DNA of 43,579 bases from a virus (Duplodnaviria > Caudoviricetes), in the IMG/VR virus record IMGVR_UViG_3300028588_000039, positions 1 through 43,579 of that record. One strand, given 5' to 3'. Below the pieces are notes generated by a model. It ran no database searches, was not told the origin of the DNA, and worked only from the letters and a program-made list of their open reading frames with translations. The stretch's first letter is position 1; the number at the start of each line of letters is the position of its first letter. The translations under genes were made by a program, and so were the position numbers. Shown here piece by piece: positions 3,865 through 22,964 of the stretch.

Positions 3865-5673
3865 TCACGCAACTGCTCCCGGCATCGTCAACGCCATCGC
3901 CACGTTTCGCACCCAGATCGGTGTCGCGCTCAACACGAACGTCTCGCCAGACCACGCCAGTAGCAGCGTCGTGCCCATCACTTCCGCGATCGCGGTCGCA
4001 GCTGCCGGCGGCACCAGGTTGCCGATGTGCTCGCGCCACACGCTGTCGCTCATCCCGTCCAGCAGCAGGTGCTCCTCGGGCTCGATCAGGCTCTGCAGCG
4101 CGGCCAGCTCGAGCGTGGTGAGCGGGCGGTGCCAGGTGCCGTCGAGCGCGCGGATGATGGCGATGGTCTTCTGGTCCGGCGCCGGCAACGCATCGATGCG
4201 CGGATCAGCGACCGACCACCGGCCGTTATCCTGGCGTGCGGACGCGCTGACAGCACCGCTCGGCGAATCCCAGGGCACCACACCATAGTGGCCGCCGGTC
4301 AGGTAGGCATCGCCCTGCTTACGCGTATTCAAGCTGGTGCGAGGGTCAGCAACGGCAAAGGCGCCTTGGCCTGTTGTGCTGGCGGCGATCTCGGTACCTG
4401 CGGCCTGGTCGAACGGCGTGACCTGGTACTTGCCGGCGCCGTCGAAGCTGCTGGTCGACCGCGGGTCCTGCACGGCGAACATTCCCTGCCCTGGACTCTT
4501 CACGTTGATCACCGCGCCCATCGTCTCGTCCCAGCCGCACAGGCCATACTGGCCGCAGTCGTACTTGCCCGGGTCGAAGCGCGGGTCCGCGACGCACTGG
4601 CCGGTTCCGTGCGCACCAGAGACCACGCGTGCAGCCTCCTCCCAGCCGCCGACGCGCAGCTCGTTGCTGTGCTTGGCCGGCCCCATGTGACGTGGATCGG
4701 CTACTGAGAACGCACCATTGCTCGGGCCAGCGCGACCGGACACTACGCCCATGTGCTCGTCCCAGCGGTTCACGCCCAAGTAGTCGGAGCGGTATTCCGG
4801 AACGATCAGGTAATCGCGTAGGTGGCCATTCTCTACCGCCAGCTTGTTCAGCGAACGCCAGTCACTGCCAGCCTCGACGAAAGCCAGGCGCACCCACGTC
4901 TTCCACTGCAGGCGCGGGATGCGGTGCATCGGGCCGGCCGCCTCATCGCCCGGGAATGGCATGCGGCCGAGCACATCGCCCACGGGGCGCAGACGCTTCT
5001 TCTCTGGCTCGTACAGGAACGGCGGTACCTTCTCGGCGTGGCGCGCCACCAGGAGGAAGCGCTTGCGCGATTGCGCCAGGCCGCCCAGCTCGCCGCAGTC
5101 GTGCGTCGTCTCGGCGACGGCGTAGCCGTAGCGCTGCAACACCTGATTGATCTGGTCCAGCAAGTGCCGGCCGCGCGTGGCCAGCCGCGGCACGTTCTCG
5201 AACACGATCAGGTCGACCGGATCGTCGGCCCAGGCCTCGGCCATCAGCCAGATGCAGCGCAGGGTCAGCTCGTTCAGGGCCTGGTACTTCGGCGTCAGGC
5301 TCATCGTCTCGGACAGCAGACCGGAGGCGCCCTTGCACGGACTGCTGATGAACACGATGTTCGGCCGCTCGTTGCCGGCGGCGCGCCGGATGTCGGCCGG
5401 GCCCATCTCGCGCCAGTCCGCCGGCGGCTCCTTACCGTGGAAGGCGACGTACTGGCCGCGGCTGAACAGGTCCATCACGGTACCTGGCACGCCGACGATC
5501 CGGTTGAAGTCACGGATGGCCGAGGGCGAGACATCGACGCCGCCCAGGCAGCGGAAGCGCGCGGACATGGTTCCGACACGCGGATTCGCCTTGTTGAAGC
5601 CCTTGGCGCCGCCGCCGATGCCGCAGCAGAAGTGAAAGTGCTTGATCTCTTGGGTGTGGGTATCGCGGGGCAT
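3865..5673 (-). CDS. DNA (cytosine-5)-methyltransferase with repeated variable region
   Basis: Motif I HFCCGIGG, motif IV SSPCKG, motif VI FENVP, motif VIII QSRKR, motif X IGNLVPP. Confidence 0.92.
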   Translation of the reverse strand: MPRDTHTQEIKHFHFCCGIGGGAKGFNKANPRVGTMSARFRCLGGVDVSPSAIRDFNRIVGVPGTVMDLFSRGQYVAFHGKEPPADWREMGPADIRRAAGNERPNIVFISSPCKGASGLLSETMSLTPKYQALNELTLRCIWLMAEAWADDPVDLIVFENVPRLATRGRHLLDQINQVLQRYGYAVAETTHDCGELGGLAQSRKRFLLVARHAEKVPPFLYEPEKKRLRPVGDVLGRMPFPGDEAAGPMHRIPRLQWKTWVRLAFVEAGSDWRSLNKLAVENGHLRDYLIVPEYRSDYLGVNRWDEHMGVVSGRAGPSNGAFSVADPRHMGPAKHSNELRVGGWEEAARVVSGAHGTGQCVADPRFDPGKYDCGQYGLCGWDETMGAVINVKSPGQGMFAVQDPRSTSSFDGAGKYQVTPFDQAAGTEIAASTTGQGAFAVADPRTSLNTRKQGDAYLTGGHYGVVPWDSPSGAVSASARQDNGRWSVADPRIDALPAPDQKTIAIIRALDGTWHRPLTTLELAALQSLIEPEEHLLLDGMSDSVWREHIGNLVPPAAATAIAEVMGTTLLLAWSGETFVLSATPIWVRNVAMALTMPGAVA

Positions 5674-5675
5674 TC

Positions 5676-6101
5676 TTATTTTCCTAATGGTTTTGCATAG
5701 CCGGCGCACGGCGCCGACGTGGTGATGAGGTCGACCCGCGCCGGCCCGAAAAACGCCACGTCCTGCGGGTGCCGCTGCATCCCGATCTGGCGCGCCGGCA
5801 CTACCTTGGCGCCGCTAAACGCATTGCCGCGCTCTTTCTTGTCCGGCGGCGCACCATCGCTACCCAGGCGCCAAATCTGCCGGTTGAACGGCCCACGCTC
5901 TTCCGAGCGGCAGACTTCGCCCATTTCGGCCAGGTAGTTCAGGTAGCGGCACACGGTGCTGTCGGTCAGGCTAAGCTCGGCCATGAGCTCGGCCACGGTG
6001 CGCGGCTTCTCGGCCAGCAGCGCGAGGATGCTGTCGCAGGCGCGCTCGCGCGCCGCGATTCTGTCGGTGGTGGACTGGCCACTGGTAGGTTTCTTCGTCA
6101 T
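5676..6101 (-). CDS. Winged-HTH DNA-binding protein
   Basis: ILALLAEKPRTVAELMAELSLTDSTVCRYLNYLAEMGEV; ATGA-coupled start at 6101. Confidence 0.75.
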   Translation of the reverse strand: MTKKPTSGQSTTDRIAARERACDSILALLAEKPRTVAELMAELSLTDSTVCRYLNYLAEMGEVCRSEERGPFNRQIWRLGSDGAPPDKKERGNAFSGAKVVPARQIGMQRHPQDVAFFGPARVDLITTSAPCAGYAKPLGK

Positions 6102-11797: not shown

Positions 11798-12175
11798 CTA
11801 CCGCTTGGCGGGCGCGGCAACTGAAGGCGGTGCAGCTTGGGCAGGCGCCGTCCCAGCAGCAGAGGCAGGCTCAACAGAGGGTCTTACGTAATCTTTCAGC
11901 ATTGGGAGCAGCTGAGCAAGGAAGATCGCCGCAACGACCCACATGACAATGCTGGTTTTTGCATCGGAAACTTCCTTGCCGGTAGCATAATTCGAACGCA
12001 TAACAGCCACATCGCGCTCGATGTTGACGACGCGCTCGACGGTCTTCTCGACCAGGCCTTCCAGTTTTTTGACTCTTTCTTCCATACTCGGATCATCCGG
12101 TGGTCCGCCAGAGTTGTCAACCGGCGTTCTCGGCCCCCTCCTCCAGTGACCATGATCGTCAACAACCCGACTCAT
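11798..12175 (-). CDS. Coiled-coil protein with C-terminal TM helix (moron)
   Basis: GGPPDDPSMEERVKKLE...NYAT...IVMWVVAAIFLAQLL. Confidence 0.7.
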   Translation of the reverse strand: MSRVVDDHGHWRRGPRTPVDNSGGPPDDPSMEERVKKLEGLVEKTVERVVNIERDVAVMRSNYATGKEVSDAKTSIVMWVVAAIFLAQLLPMLKDYVRPSVEPASAAGTAPAQAAPPSVAAPAKR

Positions 12176-12486
12176 GCTTTCTCCTTGTTCAAAAAATAAG
12201 TTAGCATCCTGCTAACATTATAGTGTCTTTGATAACCGCAATTAATACAGGAAAGTATTACGGTAACAAGGGCGCCACCCCGGTCGTAATTTACTCCAAC
12301 ACCCTCAACTACAGTTGCGGCGCGTTGAGCAAAATAGCCGACATCATGATTTCCCGTACCTCGCTCAATATAGTGCTGCTGCTCACCACACGACGGGCAT
12401 ACGGGAGTAATCTTTTTTGCGGTTAGGTACTCAACAACTTCCTCATACTCCAATTGCCGTAGCGGCGGCAAATCTGAAACAGCCAT
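12172..12486 (-). CDS. Zinc-ribbon protein (moron)
   Basis: CPSCG ... CINCG; AT-richer; ATGA-coupled to next gene. Confidence 0.75.
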   Translation of the reverse strand: MAVSDLPPLRQLEYEEVVEYLTAKKITPVCPSCGEQQHYIERGTGNHDVGYFAQRAATVVEGVGVNYDRGGALVTVILSCINCGYQRHYNVSRMLTYFLNKEKA

Positions 12487-12544
12487 ATATTCTCACTCAC
12501 TTCAGGGTAACTTTAATTAATCCGCGCCGCGAGCGGGGATTATT

Positions 12545-12898
12545 TTAGAATGCGTGCGGCGTCGTGGTAATTGTAGACTGCGGTGCTGGCTGCGGCTTCA
12601 ATCCGAATTGAGGAGCCTGCAGCGGCTGAATTTGCTGAGTTGGCTGAGCTGGTCGAATTGGCTGAACGGGCTGCAGTCCATATCCCTGCGGCTCTGGATT
12701 CTTTGTGCCAGTTTCCCCTGTGTAAGGATTGATATTTCCCTTCGTACTGTAGTTGTCTGCCGTCGTGCTATTGGGTGAACTGCGCATGTGGGGCGCTACG
12801 TAGGTGCCGTTGCTTTTCGTGTAGCCATTTACGTAAACCTGGGCGTATGCGCCGGAGGCGACCGCAGCAAGCAATGCGGCAGCAAAGATCTTTTTCAT
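12545..12898 (-). CDS. Secreted protein (moron)
   Basis: Signal peptide MKKIFAAALLAAVASGAYA; YVNGYTKSNGTYVAPHMRS...NYSTKGNINPYTG domain; P/Q-rich tail. Confidence 0.8.
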   Translation of the reverse strand: MKKIFAAALLAAVASGAYAQVYVNGYTKSNGTYVAPHMRSSPNSTTADNYSTKGNINPYTGETGTKNPEPQGYGLQPVQPIRPAQPTQQIQPLQAPQFGLKPQPAPQSTITTTPHAF

Positions 12899-12961
12899 TT
12901 TTCTCTCTCATAGCCGGCATGACGGCGTGCCGTGGCGCCTCCGCTCACGGCAAGCGGATTC

Positions 12962-12990
12962 TTGTAAACCGTTGAAATGCCATGTAAAGT
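12962..12990 (+). promoter_or_regulatory. Candidate sigma70 promoter for an antisense RNA
   Basis: TTGTAA-17-TAAAGT; predicted +1 lies at the start of an 11-bp hairpin. Confidence 0.5.
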
Positions 12991-12996
12991 TCAGCA

Positions 12997-13477
12997 CTGA
13001 CGGGTCGGCGTATACCGACCCGTCAAGCTCAGGTCACAAGCGACCGATTTGATGCAGCACAAAGAGCAGTCCGGATACCGCGTGGATGCACTTCGCTACA
13101 TCGATCGACCACTTCACCTGTGTTGCTTTCGTCAGTTTCAACATGGCAATGAGCCCTATTTACGCTGGCGTGCACGCCGGCTGATTAGGTCGGCATTTGT
13201 ATCGCGCCTTGCCAGGCGCTAGCCGGTGCAGCTGCAGCTGCGTTGGCACCACACTTGGGCTCGGGCATCCGACCTTGCCTGGGTGTGATTGAGCTTGAAG
13301 CAATTCCGATGGCCGAGTCTATGGGCTAGCATTTGCGGGGCATCCACCCCGCCCGGCTCGACGGTCGCATAGACCGGCTTTCGTTATCACTTCGCACCAC
13401 ATGCGGGTTAGCGGCCCGCAGTCCGGGAGCTACCCCGGATTCTTTGCTCCCGTGCCGTCATGGGCGGGAGCGCTTTC
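12997..13477 (+). ncRNA. Candidate ~480-nt structured RNA
   Basis: Upstream promoter, many hairpins with G-U pairs favouring the plus strand, terminal GCTCCCG/CGGGAGC hairpin followed by GCTTTCTT. Confidence 0.4.
13034..13144 (-). CDS. 36-aa hydrophobic peptide (candidate type I toxin)
   Basis: MLKLTKATQVKWSIDVAKCIHAVSGLLFVLHQIGRL*; below the ORF-track size cutoff. Confidence 0.45.
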   Translation of the reverse strand: MLKLTKATQVKWSIDVAKCIHAVSGLLFVLHQIGRL

Positions 13478-14314
13478 TTAAATATCGGTTTTTTTGTAAA
13501 TCGCTCCAGTCTGCCTATTAAATATCCAGACTTGAACAAGTTTCATAATAAGAAGATCACCACTAAACGCCATTTCATTCGGGCGGTCAATTGTCGGTTT
13601 CGAATAATCGTGAAATTCCGATAAGTAGGGTTCGTTCAGATTTCCAACAAATATCAGCGCCAAATTACCTTTGGCGGATCGAGCATCATCAGCCGACATT
13701 TCGATAGACTCATCGATATTTTTTATTCCTGACCTTAGTAAGGAGGAATACGTTAGATTCGAAAACGCCACAGCGCAGACATTCCATTGAGAACTGTCAA
13801 CATCAACTTTTTTTCCGTATGCATTGGATGCGACATATGATCGGTTCGATTTTATTTTTTCATTAAGCCTTACAAACCTTAATAGTTCGTTGTTGACCAT
13901 TTTTGTTTGCCCGTCCCAGTGAGCGCGCACGTTTAACACGCCGCGATCCGCATCATAAGTTTCACTCACTCCGGCATACACATCGGAAGCCTGCACAAAC
14001 CCCACCACATCATTAAGCGTCGTAGTACCCACTATTGGCGCGTTGCCAGCCGCGTCCACACGAGCTCTGTATGCAGACGTGGTTTCGAATTCTGATTTCT
14101 GAGGTTTGATTTTGGAGACGGCTTTTGCAAAGCTACGACAGCTATGGCCAATATATTGGGGAGGCAGGGCATCTACCCCCGGATCCAGCGGTGCCAGTGT
14201 ATAAAGTAATTCCTTCTGAGATGCCTTAGGCTGGGAAGCTTTTTTGACGGGAGCAGCAAAGACGGAAGAGGTCCCGGCAATCGCAAGGGTACAAAGGACT
14301 AAAGTAAATTTCAT
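13478..14314 (-). CDS. Exported protein (low-GC moron downstream of cI)
   Basis: Signal peptide MKFTLVLCTLAIAGTSSVFA; KSEFETT motif; start could be 14347. Confidence 0.75.
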   Translation of the reverse strand: MKFTLVLCTLAIAGTSSVFAAPVKKASQPKASQKELLYTLAPLDPGVDALPPQYIGHSCRSFAKAVSKIKPQKSEFETTSAYRARVDAAGNAPIVGTTTLNDVVGFVQASDVYAGVSETYDADRGVLNVRAHWDGQTKMVNNELLRFVRLNEKIKSNRSYVASNAYGKKVDVDSSQWNVCAVAFSNLTYSSLLRSGIKNIDESIEMSADDARSAKGNLALIFVGNLNEPYLSEFHDYSKPTIDRPNEMAFSGDLLIMKLVQVWIFNRQTGAIYKKTDI

Positions 14315-14422
14315 TAGATTTTTCCCATCGACGTCTAAGCGCGCCATATCACCATTCAAAATCTCACAAAAACTCACGCGTCAATCATGTGACACCAGCT
14401 GTTGTCGGACACTGGCGAAAAA

Positions 14423-14442
14423 TACTGTATGGGTGTACAGTA
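14423..14442. promoter_or_regulatory. LexA (SOS) box
   Basis: TACTGTATGGGTGTACAGTA = CTGT-N8-ACAG with palindromic TA flanks, overlapping a TACAGT -10 candidate. Confidence 0.88.
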
Positions 14443-14469
14443 GTTTACATCACGACACTACCAACGATC

Positions 14470-14700
14470 ATGACCGACATCGACGACCTGCTCAGCATTT
14501 ACGCCACTATGAACCCGGACGGTCGCGATCGATTGCGCTCGTTTGCACGACATCTGCAGAAGCGCTTCCCCTCGGGGCGCAGACCGTCACTGTCGCTTGT
14601 TCAAAATTCCAACAATGTCGAGGCGCTCGATCACATCGTCGACGGCTGCGTCGATTACCGTACGGTCGTCAGCGCTGGCGAGTCGGTACACAGTCAGTAG
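14470..14700 (+). CDS. Putative SOS-inducible antirepressor (76 aa)
   Basis: Starts 27 bp after the SOS box; LLSIYATMNPDGR resembles the CI C-terminal motif; last 114 nt antisense to cI. Confidence 0.65.
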   Translation: MTDIDDLLSIYATMNPDGRDRLRSFARHLQKRFPSGRRPSLSLVQNSNNVEALDHIVDGCVDYRTVVSAGESVHSQ

Positions 14701-14982
14701 CCGCACCTCATCCCCAGCCTGCTTCAGCAGCGCTTCCATTCGCTGCGCCACCGGGTGACTTTGGTCGACCACGCTGGCCGGCGCTTCAGCGTCATCAAAA
14801 AAGTCGGCAACACGCACCAGTAGTGCCTGGGCGATGTTGCGCAAAACATCCTCGCTTACCCACTGCTTCCCTCGCTCGATCCGCGACAAATTCCCATCGG
14901 TTAGCCCAGCCCTGCCCTCGACCTCGGCCAGCGTCATCTTTTTGGCAATCCGAATTGCCCTGATTTTTTCACCTGCGCTCAT
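14587..14982 (-). CDS. cI: Prophage repressor (XRE HTH, no S24 peptidase domain)
   Basis: KIRAIRIAKKMTLAEVEGRAGLTDGNLSRIERG; divergent from cro; 131 aa only. Confidence 0.88.
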   Translation of the reverse strand: MSAGEKIRAIRIAKKMTLAEVEGRAGLTDGNLSRIERGKQWVSEDVLRNIAQALLVRVADFFDDAEAPASVVDQSHPVAQRMEALLKQAGDEVRLLTVYRLASADDRTVIDAAVDDVIERLDIVGILNKRQ

Positions 14983-14989
14983 GCGTGCG

Positions 14990-15066
14990 ATTGTCGAATT
15001 TTGATGCGCCTCTCGCAAGGCGCATTGCGCATTTCTTATTTCTGATATAAAGTGCGTATTACGCAT
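14990..15066. promoter_or_regulatory. OR region with pRM and pR
   Basis: pRM (minus) TTGCGA 15018-15013, 17 bp, GACAAT 14995-14990; pR (plus) TTGCGC 15025-15030, 17 bp, TAAAGT 15048-15053; operator-like palindromes 15004-15018, 15018-15032, 15052-15066. Confidence 0.75.
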
Positions 15067-15085: not shown

Positions 15086-15325
15086 ATGAAATCGCCTCTC
15101 CGACAAGCTCGCGAAAAGCGCGGCATCACGCTGAATGTTCTTGCTAAAAAAGTTGGCAGCGACGTTGGCAACCTCAGTCGCATCGAGCGCGGGGTCCAGA
15201 CCCCCAATGCCCAGCTGGCCGAGCGAATCTGCCGCGAGTTTGACGGTGAAGTCAGCGAACTGCAGCTCATCTACCCGGCCCGCTACGCCGAGTCTGCTGC
15301 TCAACCCGAATCCCAGCCGCAGTAA
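15086..15325 (+). CDS. cro: Cro-like repressor
   Basis: HTH with GNLSRIERG identical to CI; C-terminal LIYP; AGGAG RBS. Confidence 0.88.
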   Translation: MKSPLRQAREKRGITLNVLAKKVGSDVGNLSRIERGVQTPNAQLAERICREFDGEVSELQLIYPARYAESAAQPESQPQ

Positions 15326-15954: not shown

Positions 15955-16139
15955 CGGAGCCCATCATTTACCGCGCCATGATCCAGTCCAAGGCCCGCGA
16001 GGCATTCGTGCGCGGCGCCGGCCGCGATGACCACGGCTTCAACTGGCACAGCGTCGATGCAATCGCTACCTGGCAGGACGCCTGGGATGCGTGCGCGGCT
16101 GAGGCTGGCCAGCAGCTGGTGGGGAGCAGCCCGCCATGA
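15951..16139 (+). CDS. Hypothetical protein
   Basis: 62 aa, ATGA overlaps on both sides. Confidence 0.65.
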   Translation: MTEPIIYRAMIQSKAREAFVRGAGRDDHGFNWHSVDAIATWQDAWDACAAEAGQQLVGSSPP

Positions 16140-16885
16140 TCCACTACCACGGCTTGCCGATCACCCCGGCCACGGCCGCCGTGCGCGCAATCGGCGGCGG
16201 TCACGCCTTCGTTTCGTTTCCGAACTCCGACCAGTTGACGGTCGCGCTGGAGGTGGCACAGTCGATTGCAGTCGACAACGGCGCCTTCGGCGCTTGGCGT
16301 AGCGGGAAACCAGTGACGAACTGGTGCAGCTACTACGCCTGGGTACAGGAGCTGCACCGCTATCCGCAATTCGACTTTGCAGTCATCCCCGACGTCATCG
16401 ATGGCGACGAGGCCGCCAACGACGCTTTGCTCGCGGAGTGGCCTTGGCACGACCGTGCCGCGCACGTCGGCGCCCCTGTCTGGCACCTGCACGAATCCCT
16501 CGCTCGCCTGGATCGGCTTGTATCCGCGTGGCCGCGTATCTGCCTCGGCAGCTCGGGCGAGTTCGCCAAGATTGGCACTCAAGCTTGGTGGACGCGCATG
16601 GCCCAGGCGATGGATGTCATCTGCGACAAGGATGGCCGCCCAGCTGCAAAGATTCATGGCCTCCGCATGCTAGACCCGGCCATTTATACCCGCTTCCCTT
16701 TCGCAAGTGCCGATAGCACGAACATCGGCCGCAACGTCGGGATCGACAGTGCCTGGCGCGGCACGTACACACCACCGACGAAAGAAGCGCGCGCCGCAAT
16801 CATGCGCGAACGCATCGAATCGCAACAGTCGATGACGTTCTGGATCCGCGAGCTGGCGCCGATCCAACTGGGGATGTTTCCATGA
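16136..16885 (+). CDS. TGT/DpdA-like (guanine transglycosylase fold) protein
   Basis: VDNGAF, IPDVI, PVWH, LGSSG, IHGLRM, SADST in the order of TGT-family motifs. Confidence 0.7.
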   Translation: MIHYHGLPITPATAAVRAIGGGHAFVSFPNSDQLTVALEVAQSIAVDNGAFGAWRSGKPVTNWCSYYAWVQELHRYPQFDFAVIPDVIDGDEAANDALLAEWPWHDRAAHVGAPVWHLHESLARLDRLVSAWPRICLGSSGEFAKIGTQAWWTRMAQAMDVICDKDGRPAAKIHGLRMLDPAIYTRFPFASADSTNIGRNVGIDSAWRGTYTPPTKEARAAIMRERIESQQSMTFWIRELAPIQLGMFP

Positions 16886-18685: not shown

Positions 18686-18892
18686 ATGAAACGAATGCTG
18701 ATCCTGGCCGTGCTGCTGGCCGGCTGCGCGAGAACCGGTAGCGACAATCGCTCCTACGACCCCACGGTGTATGCGGACCGCACCACTGGCTGCCAGTACC
18801 TTGCACCCGGCTTCGATTCCCGCGCATCGCTTACTGCGCGCATCGCCGCCGACGGCAAGACGCACATGGGCTGCAAGGCGGTGCAGCCGTGA
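18686..18892 (+). CDS. Small lipoprotein
   Basis: Lipobox LLAGC; DRTTGCQYL. Confidence 0.75.
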   Translation: MKRMLILAVLLAGCARTGSDNRSYDPTVYADRTTGCQYLAPGFDSRASLTARIAADGKTHMGCKAVQP

Positions 18893-22547: not shown

Positions 22548-22964
22548 TCAGCGCAAGATCAGATCCAGCTCGCGGCCGAGCGCCTGAAACGCCGACGCGA
22601 GCGTGTCGATCTTGGTCGCGTGCTTCAAGTCCGTCAGACGGTTGGCCTCTTGCTTGGTCGTGCCCATGCGGCGCGCCAGCTCGGACGGCCCGACGTCCTG
22701 GGTCAGCATCTCATTGAGAAGCAAGACCTTCGACGACGCGCTCAACGGCAACGGGATCATGCGCTCGTCACCCTGCGGCGCCGATGGCATCGGAACCACA
22801 CGGCGGTCATCGAAGTAGATCGTCATGCAGGTCAGAAGCGCGTCGGCCGCCATCGCCAGCGCCTCGGCCTCGTCGTCGCCTTGCGTGATCGCCTCTGGAA
22901 TGTCGCGGAACTCGATAACGAATCCGCCCTCTTCGGCAGGTGTAAAAGTAGCTGGATATTTCAT
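22548..22964 (-). CDS. hicB: HicB antitoxin
   Basis: YPATFTPAEEGGFVIEFRDIPEAITQGDDEAEALAMAADAL plus C-terminal HTH. Confidence 0.95.
   Translation of the reverse strand: MKYPATFTPAEEGGFVIEFRDIPEAITQGDDEAEALAMAADALLTCMTIYFDDRRVVPMPSAPQGDERMIPLPLSASSKVLLLNEMLTQDVGPSELARRMGTTKQEANRLTDLKHATKIDTLASAFQALGRELDLILR

Follow-up and report, generated by a model that had tools for sequence, protein, structure and literature searches.

A small gene behind an SOS box, convergent with a protease-less cI repressor gene, as a candidate antirepressor of Massilia-like phages

The window (the whole stretch of DNA analysed, 43,579 nucleotides) comprises an entire 43.6-kb virus record that is about 69% complete and carries integrase, recombination, replication, terminase, portal and head genes. 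The nearest named relative of its cI protein (P0016, 75%) comes from Massilia sp. 9096, and on the strength of this one named relative the host is probably a member of the Oxalobacteraceae; scans of genome collections found no match. Elsewhere in the window lie a DNA methyltransferase gene (3865-5709, minus strand), a phrog_887 gene labelled queuine tRNA-ribosyltransferase (16136-16885, plus strand) and a gene for a HicB-like antitoxin (22548-22964, minus strand). Downstream of cI, four genes of lower GC content (phrog_3556, 4293, 29674 and 13753; 11798-14314, minus strand) occupy a slot that varies among relatives.

The cI repressor gene (14587-14982, minus strand) encodes 131 residues, arranged as a helix-turn-helix (HTH) domain (residues 1-61), a linker and a helical hairpin whose helices AlphaFold2 places at residues 77-101 and 104-130. 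The earlier note had described this protein as lacking an S24 autocleavage domain, and so it proved: family scans of the window's cI recovered HTH families alone, without Peptidase_S24 (PF00717), and no such domain appears in the predicted model either. Divergent from cI is a cro-like HTH gene (15086-15325, plus strand), the first early rightward gene, and between the two lie two operator-like palindromes of the form TGCG-N5-CGCA (15005-15017 and 15053-15065, within 15005-15065). Both palindromes are present in 5/6 relatives, the remaining one having a single copy. The cI message is probably leaderless, as suggested by a GACAAT element 7 nt before its ATG, and database cI entries annotated with 159-167 aa probably begin at a start codon too far upstream. 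An xACAAT is kept 7 nt ahead of the cI ATG in 7/7 loci, adjoining the first operator (14983-14995 in the window, minus strand). A putative terminator, consisting of a hairpin and T run found by a consensus scan (14378-14395, minus strand), would probably let the cI transcript run through the whole of the small gene described next, and the box ahead of it, before termination.

That small gene (14470-14700, plus strand) is convergent with cI and encodes 76 residues. The earlier note had placed a perfect CTGT-N8-ACAG box ahead of it; the coordinates hold, and CTGTATGGGTGTACAG (14425-14440) is the sole perfect box in the window. By itself such a box is weak, with 0.32 expected and at least one found in 28/100 shuffles. 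We take CTGT-N8-ACAG to be the LexA motif in Massilia. It is the E. coli LexA motif according to the accessible text of PMC8565304, whose reference list also names a non-canonical motif for some Betaproteobacteria. The small gene would be LexA-repressed, with the reservation that the box is of the E. coli type, which may not be that of the host. In 6/6 relatives retrieved through the cI protein alone, the box lies 45-49 nt ahead of the ATG; most other modules were retrieved through the box, so that box conservation among those is circular. The box spans the spacer and -10 element of a putative sigma-70 promoter of the small gene (14413-14441, plus strand), which has a -35-like TGGCGA (14413-14418), a 17-nt spacer and a -10-like TACAGT (14436-14441). 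The positions 13-10 nt ahead of the box, outside the DNA pattern used for the 106-locus scan described below, read xT[AG]G at 21/21 module loci versus 5/85 other boxes of the same scan. This element would supply -35/17/-10 spacing directed at the small gene, and the box would cover the -10. A consensus promoter scan did not list the 14413-14441 promoter. In one RNA run, available as strandless contigs only, a related contig covers 14431-14643; it begins upstream of the putative start site, predicted near 14448, and may have originated from DNA.

Three DNA-pattern scans of viral contigs and a search with the cI protein supplied the loci for comparison. A blind box scan gave 106 loci, 21 of which carry the small gene, all with a convergent cI tail (20 recognised by profile and one by translation). 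The small gene was present in 28 of the 40 loci of a further scan, which repeated many earlier contigs and included one contig cut before cI, and the cI-protein search found both box and small gene in 6/6 relatives. Deduplication leaves 30 modules, the window among them, in six subtypes; two loci identical to the window (L007, L008) and one on the same contig as another (L001, with L003) are left out of the counts, and L002, which has neither box nor cI, was rejected as a chance match. The co-conservation of box, reading frame and protease-less cI that the earlier note had proposed to look for in related prophages is thereby borne out as one cassette in 30 loci. The module cIs are 129-176 aa long, Peptidase_S24 occurs in 0/30, and six have no Pfam match of any kind. 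By N-terminal domain they make up nine groups at <40% identity; subtypes A and B have a common tail with different heads, and subtype C has four heads. At the level of sequence, then, the small gene and the cI tail remain paired across exchanges of the DNA-binding head, and linkage through the overlap of the two genes could produce part of this co-occurrence. One locus offers a natural control (n=1): L006 combines the window's HTH type with S24, and no CTGT-N8-ACAG lies within 8.4 kb. Searches of GenBank phages returned HTH-only matches, the best with a 229-codon CI, and for a subtype C gene they returned none.

Several observations made during these scans deserve mention in their own right. 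The leader between box and start is long (about 100-225 nt) at L154, L166, L179, L185, L243, L246, L252 and L265, and at L185, L246 and L252 leader sequence is common to different subtypes. A different gene family, encoding about 110 aa with an LRC.PGD start, stands ~50 nt from an SOS box in 34/120 box-bearing sequences examined (L015, L048, L053, L063 and 30 more). At the four loci named, which were examined in full, this gene is convergent on a short cI-like gene with no overlap, and the family is a candidate for a second antirepressor family in the same slot. A 38-40-aa acidic helical reading frame (MESLLSELEEF...) follows an SOS box at about 60 nt, frequently at a contig end, at L153, L162, L180, L186-L189, L198, L203, L204 and L221.

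The small gene is real, and its non-overlapping part is under purifying selection. In that part pN/pS is 0.28 for subtype A (8 rows), as against 1.27 and 1.41 in the shifted frames, and 0.37 for subtype C (10 rows), with shifted frames at about 1.2-1.4, the pairs compared not being independent. The database relatives of the protein number seven, each of exactly 76 aa. The window's copy has no clear Shine-Dalgarno sequence; GGAG or GAGG is present in 20/24 modules on a count by eye. A codon-usage score separated neither the small gene nor cI from background, and searches of Pfam, PHROGs, PDB sequences, Atlas (best 0.80) and Foldseek assigned the small protein to no family. Some family members have variant architectures (P0037, P0043, P0061, P0076; P0051, P0066, P0073, P0078, P0079, P0083, P0090; P0054), with tandem hairpin-plus-motif units, an unknown N-terminal domain, or fusion to a DUF6440-like part that resembles window positions 18686-18892; it is possible that these are free-standing, cross-inducing copies. 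The C-terminal GGAA endings of some relatives were rejected as degrons, because ribosome sites at gene junctions can produce such endings.

AlphaFold2 predicts that the small protein forms a helical hairpin (residues 3-13 and 16-32; 14476-14565, plus strand; pLDDT 85-91) followed by a loose tail. The earlier note had aligned 13 residues of the small protein, LLSIYATMNPDGR (14488-14526), with LLTVYRLASADDR (14662-14700) in the CI C-terminus, and had pointed out that the former lies outside the overlap. The positions are correct and LLSIYATMNPDGR is indeed outside the overlap, but as a pairwise comparison the match is not beyond chance (p = 0.07-0.16 against shuffles), and BLASTP of the small protein versus CI gave no alignment. 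It is at the family level that the resemblance stands. Across 24 modules the mean ungapped family score is +15.6 in the LLSIYATMNPDGR/LLTVYRLASADDR register versus -12 to -35 in ten others, and 0/20,000 column permutations reached +15.6. With both blocks trimmed to 32 columns, hhalign (57 and 30 rows) gave a score of 21.1 and a probability of 84%, whereas none of 300 column shuffles exceeded 12.7 and the reversed profile scored 9.9; untrimmed or shallower profile comparisons gave probabilities of 1-24%. Both structural models turn two residues past the Tyr of the aligned match, and this Tyr is conserved. No HTH-bearing protein was present among the 58 matches of the small-gene profile (18 longer matches scanned), and CI tails did not rise above six-frame noise in its profile-to-sequence search. 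The likeness between small gene and CI could be that of a shared hairpin pattern. A wide fold search returned NblA, the dimerisation domain of TP901-1 CI and the C-terminal domain of CapH, all at Z 3.3-4.1; matches at Z <5 were rejected as family assignments and denote a common arrangement only.

The resemblance differs between subtypes. Subtype C genes show none to the CI they are paired with (mean score -0.9 to 1.7), and subtype A genes are closer to subtype C repressors than to their own (38 vs 19). The reason is that the two partners of a pair are oppositely charged: basic A genes go with acidic CIs, and acidic C genes with basic CIs (rho -0.71). After kinship correction the charge signal has r -0.41 (p 0.05), or r -0.33 (p 0.11) for helix 2 alone. 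Opposite charge fits a heterodimer favoured over the homodimer, marginally so once kinship is corrected for.

These features invite a simple account of induction. LexA would keep the small gene off until DNA damage, through LexA cleavage, released its promoter. The predicted hairpin of the small protein would then stand in for a CI subunit by binding the C-terminal pairing domain, CI oligomers would fall apart, and the cro promoter would be freed and cro transcribed. We consider it very likely that the small gene encodes an SOS-induced antirepressor, whatever the route by which it acts; that it is LexA-repressed and works by capping the C-terminal domain of CI is the more specific statement and seems to us probable, and here we infer LexA binding, CI binding and induction. 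This reading draws on the linkage of the cassette, the S24-less cIs, selection on the small gene, the family-level register, the predicted hairpins, the opposite charges and the precedent of AimX-AimC discussed below. The SOS-gated antirepressor acting by mimicry of the CI C-terminal domain that the earlier note had proposed thus finds support in conservation, selection, the family register and the predicted hairpins; its antisense component is doubtful, as considered below.

Neither the AimX-AimC precedent nor a motif in the small protein's tail figured in the earlier note. The motif, RPSLSLV (14581-14601, plus strand), resembles the tail of SspB and lies in a predicted unstructured stretch after the hairpin. 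R-P-x-L-[RT]-L-[VI] follows the hairpin in 50/57 profile matches (one repetitive 1,201-aa match left out) versus 17/165 background windows, a frequency inflated by the presence of the motif in the search profile; when only matches whose hairpin by itself reaches 25 bits are counted, it is found in 31/36. On the family matrix the SspB heptamer itself attains 17.5 bits, beside a family median of 16.7, and 0/6,677 phage 7-mers score as high. In subtype C, L41 and L43 are Leu in 10/10 while the opposite cI residue varies among K, Q and E, and the motif persists in short-tailed members, 11/50 members ending at most 12 residues past it; the motif therefore belongs to the small protein. It is absent from subtype B (7 modules) and so is not essential to every cassette. 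The cI linkers at L246 and L252 contain KARLRVVE, which is SspB-tail-like too. According to the accessible text of two papers, the E. coli SspB tail RGGRPALRVVK binds the N-domain of ClpX (PMC3983244, PMC8808172), and in the first of these the free tail peptide inhibits ClpXP on several substrates.

By this resemblance, the tail motif may serve as the link between CI and ClpXP; alternatively, it may promote removal of the antirepressor or have some other binding partner. An involvement of ClpX is possible, if on balance doubtful. We entertain, tentatively, a swappable induction cassette in place of the S24 autoprotease, in which an SOS-induced mimic would capture CI and its RPxLxLV tail would tether the captured repressor to the ClpX N-domain, removal by ClpXP replacing autocleavage. 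A stronger version, which we regard as rather unlikely, holds that sequestration is insufficient and that degradation is the main step, the small protein being a phage-made ClpXP adaptor with its hairpin on CI and its motif on ClpX. The frequency of the motif in the family, its fixed leucines, the score of the SspB heptamer, its place near the end of some members and the known binding of the SspB tail all speak for an adaptor; against it, the motif comprises seven residues, its frequency is inflated as noted and subtype B does without it. Moreover, it is terminal in SspB, whereas 32 residues follow it in the window protein, and it might instead be a CI-binding strand or serve destruction of the antirepressor itself.

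The small gene's last 114 nt are antisense to cI (14587-14700), as the earlier note had said, in codon-to-codon phase. An overlap of 63-129 nt in this phase is found in all 30 modules. The stop of the small gene coincides with a Leu codon of cI; within a subtype it is held at one cI codon, exchanging TAG for TAA and once becoming TGA with a change of Leu to Ser, and an early stop occurs in 1/24 modules only. Outside the overlap, just 27/146 cI Leu codons are CTA or TTA. Leu and Ile codons of cI vary at 0.31 and 0.21 within the overlap, lower than the 0.72 and 0.45 of the HTH. Inside the overlap pN/pS in the small gene's frame is near 1 (0.94, 0.75), and most of the tail therefore follows cI; the tail appears to be translated and mildly constrained. 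One could read this arrangement at the level of RNA, with SOS-induced convergent transcription silencing cI and the protein either incidental or an RNA shield only. Such a reading gains from an overlap in every module, from a stop held at one cI codon and from a cI transcript that probably crosses the whole gene, yet it is improbable: the hairpin is under selection as protein, some relatives have a short tail or hairpins in tandem, and pre-existing CI protein would need to decay as well. In AimX-AimC, moreover, recoding of the overlap was without effect and a start-to-stop change abolished function, in the accessible text of the preprint (bioRxiv 10.1101/2025.11.23.689978). By analogy with that system, where the protein acted and the antisense RNA did not, the antisense interference with cI proposed in the earlier note is doubtful here.

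A host target is a shade less probable still: the protein might, for example, occupy the ClpX N-domain during the SOS response and shift the turnover of host or phage proteins, its linkage to cI being hitch-hiking. Inhibition of ClpXP by the free SspB tail peptide would suit this, overlapping genes co-segregate mechanically, and some family members carry additional fused domains and may be located elsewhere; it would leave the CI-like hairpin, the restriction to S24-less cIs and the absence of the box at L006 unexplained. That the protein binds CI yet stabilises repression, damping SOS induction, is very improbable: a hairpin mimic could in principle lengthen oligomers, but comparison of 46 window proteins with PHROGs brought up no other inducing function (contig ~69% complete), and the tested precedents, as far as their accessible text goes, are pro-lytic.

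An SOS-induced antirepressor in this position would bear on a more general matter, in that many prophage repressors are short and unable to self-cut, and their damage sensing is mostly unknown. The analysis yields a defined, unnamed family and a conserved promoter signature for finding it, and the natural cognate and non-cognate pairs open specificity and cross-induction to study in Gram-negative phages. The ClpX-tether-like motif sharpens the prediction to antirepression via targeted proteolysis; if true, a phage would encode a proteolytic adaptor for its own repressor, and LexA cleavage together with host proteolysis would replace lambda-style autocleavage.

It is informative to set the cassette beside known systems. 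A literature search, thin in its coverage of subscription journals, found no description of the small-gene family and no printed account of antirepression by targeted proteolysis via a phage adaptor. Tethering of UmuD/UmuD' is reportedly comparable to that by SspB in the SspB-ClpXP system. As far as the accessible sources describe SspB, it shares with the small protein the order of a binding module, a flexible stretch and then R-P-x-L-R-[LV]-V; unlike SspB, the family has no detectable substrate-binding domain (PF04386), and its tail motif is usually internal. In S. aureus, ClpX reportedly removes cleaved CI, which is a different route (PMC10584840).

Tum of phage 186 and AntC of N15 are LexA-controlled antirepressors. 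The accessible text of PMC3121763 names Tum and describes the Gifsy proteins GfoA, GftA and GfhA, where, as proposed here, a short non-cleavable repressor is inactivated by a LexA-repressed small protein; the Gifsy antirepressor locus is far from the immunity region, whereas the small gene here lies beside cI.

The repressor here is built like SinR, with an HTH and a helical tail, and 1b0n is among its HTH-driven fold matches. SinI-SinR is a chromosomal biofilm switch of Bacillus subtilis and is neither SOS-controlled nor antisense. SinI is a small helical protein that mimics the oligomerisation helices of its repressor (accessible text of bioRxiv 10.1101/2025.11.23.689978), as the small protein here may do. 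The SinI/SinR dimerisation Pfam gave no match at E <= 1 in 25 members, and there was no PDB sequence match; judged by sequence, the small protein would not be a member of the SinI family.

The closest precedent is AimX-AimC of the extended arbitrium phages in the Bacillus phi106 family, described in the same preprint, on whose accessible text the following comparison is based. There too a small gene is convergent with and overlaps a short HTH repressor gene, with a LexA site just upstream and a divergent cro-like gene, and AimX, which binds the C-terminal helices through which the repressor oligomerises, keeps it from binding DNA. In AimX-AimC, aimR-aimP lies directly upstream; here that place is held by an opposite-strand gene (phrog_13753), and no AimR-like family was found among 12 neighbour genes. 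The overlap is 30 nt in phi106 as against 63-129 nt here, and the present cassette has an E. coli-type box and belongs to Gram-negative (Massilia-like) phages, unlike the Bacillus system. Further differences are the family-level likeness to the repressor tail and the SspB-tail-like motif, the latter unmentioned for AimX in that text. Since AimX-AimC has already demonstrated the logic, the layout alone is moderately new; the small gene likely works alike, outside an arbitrium module.
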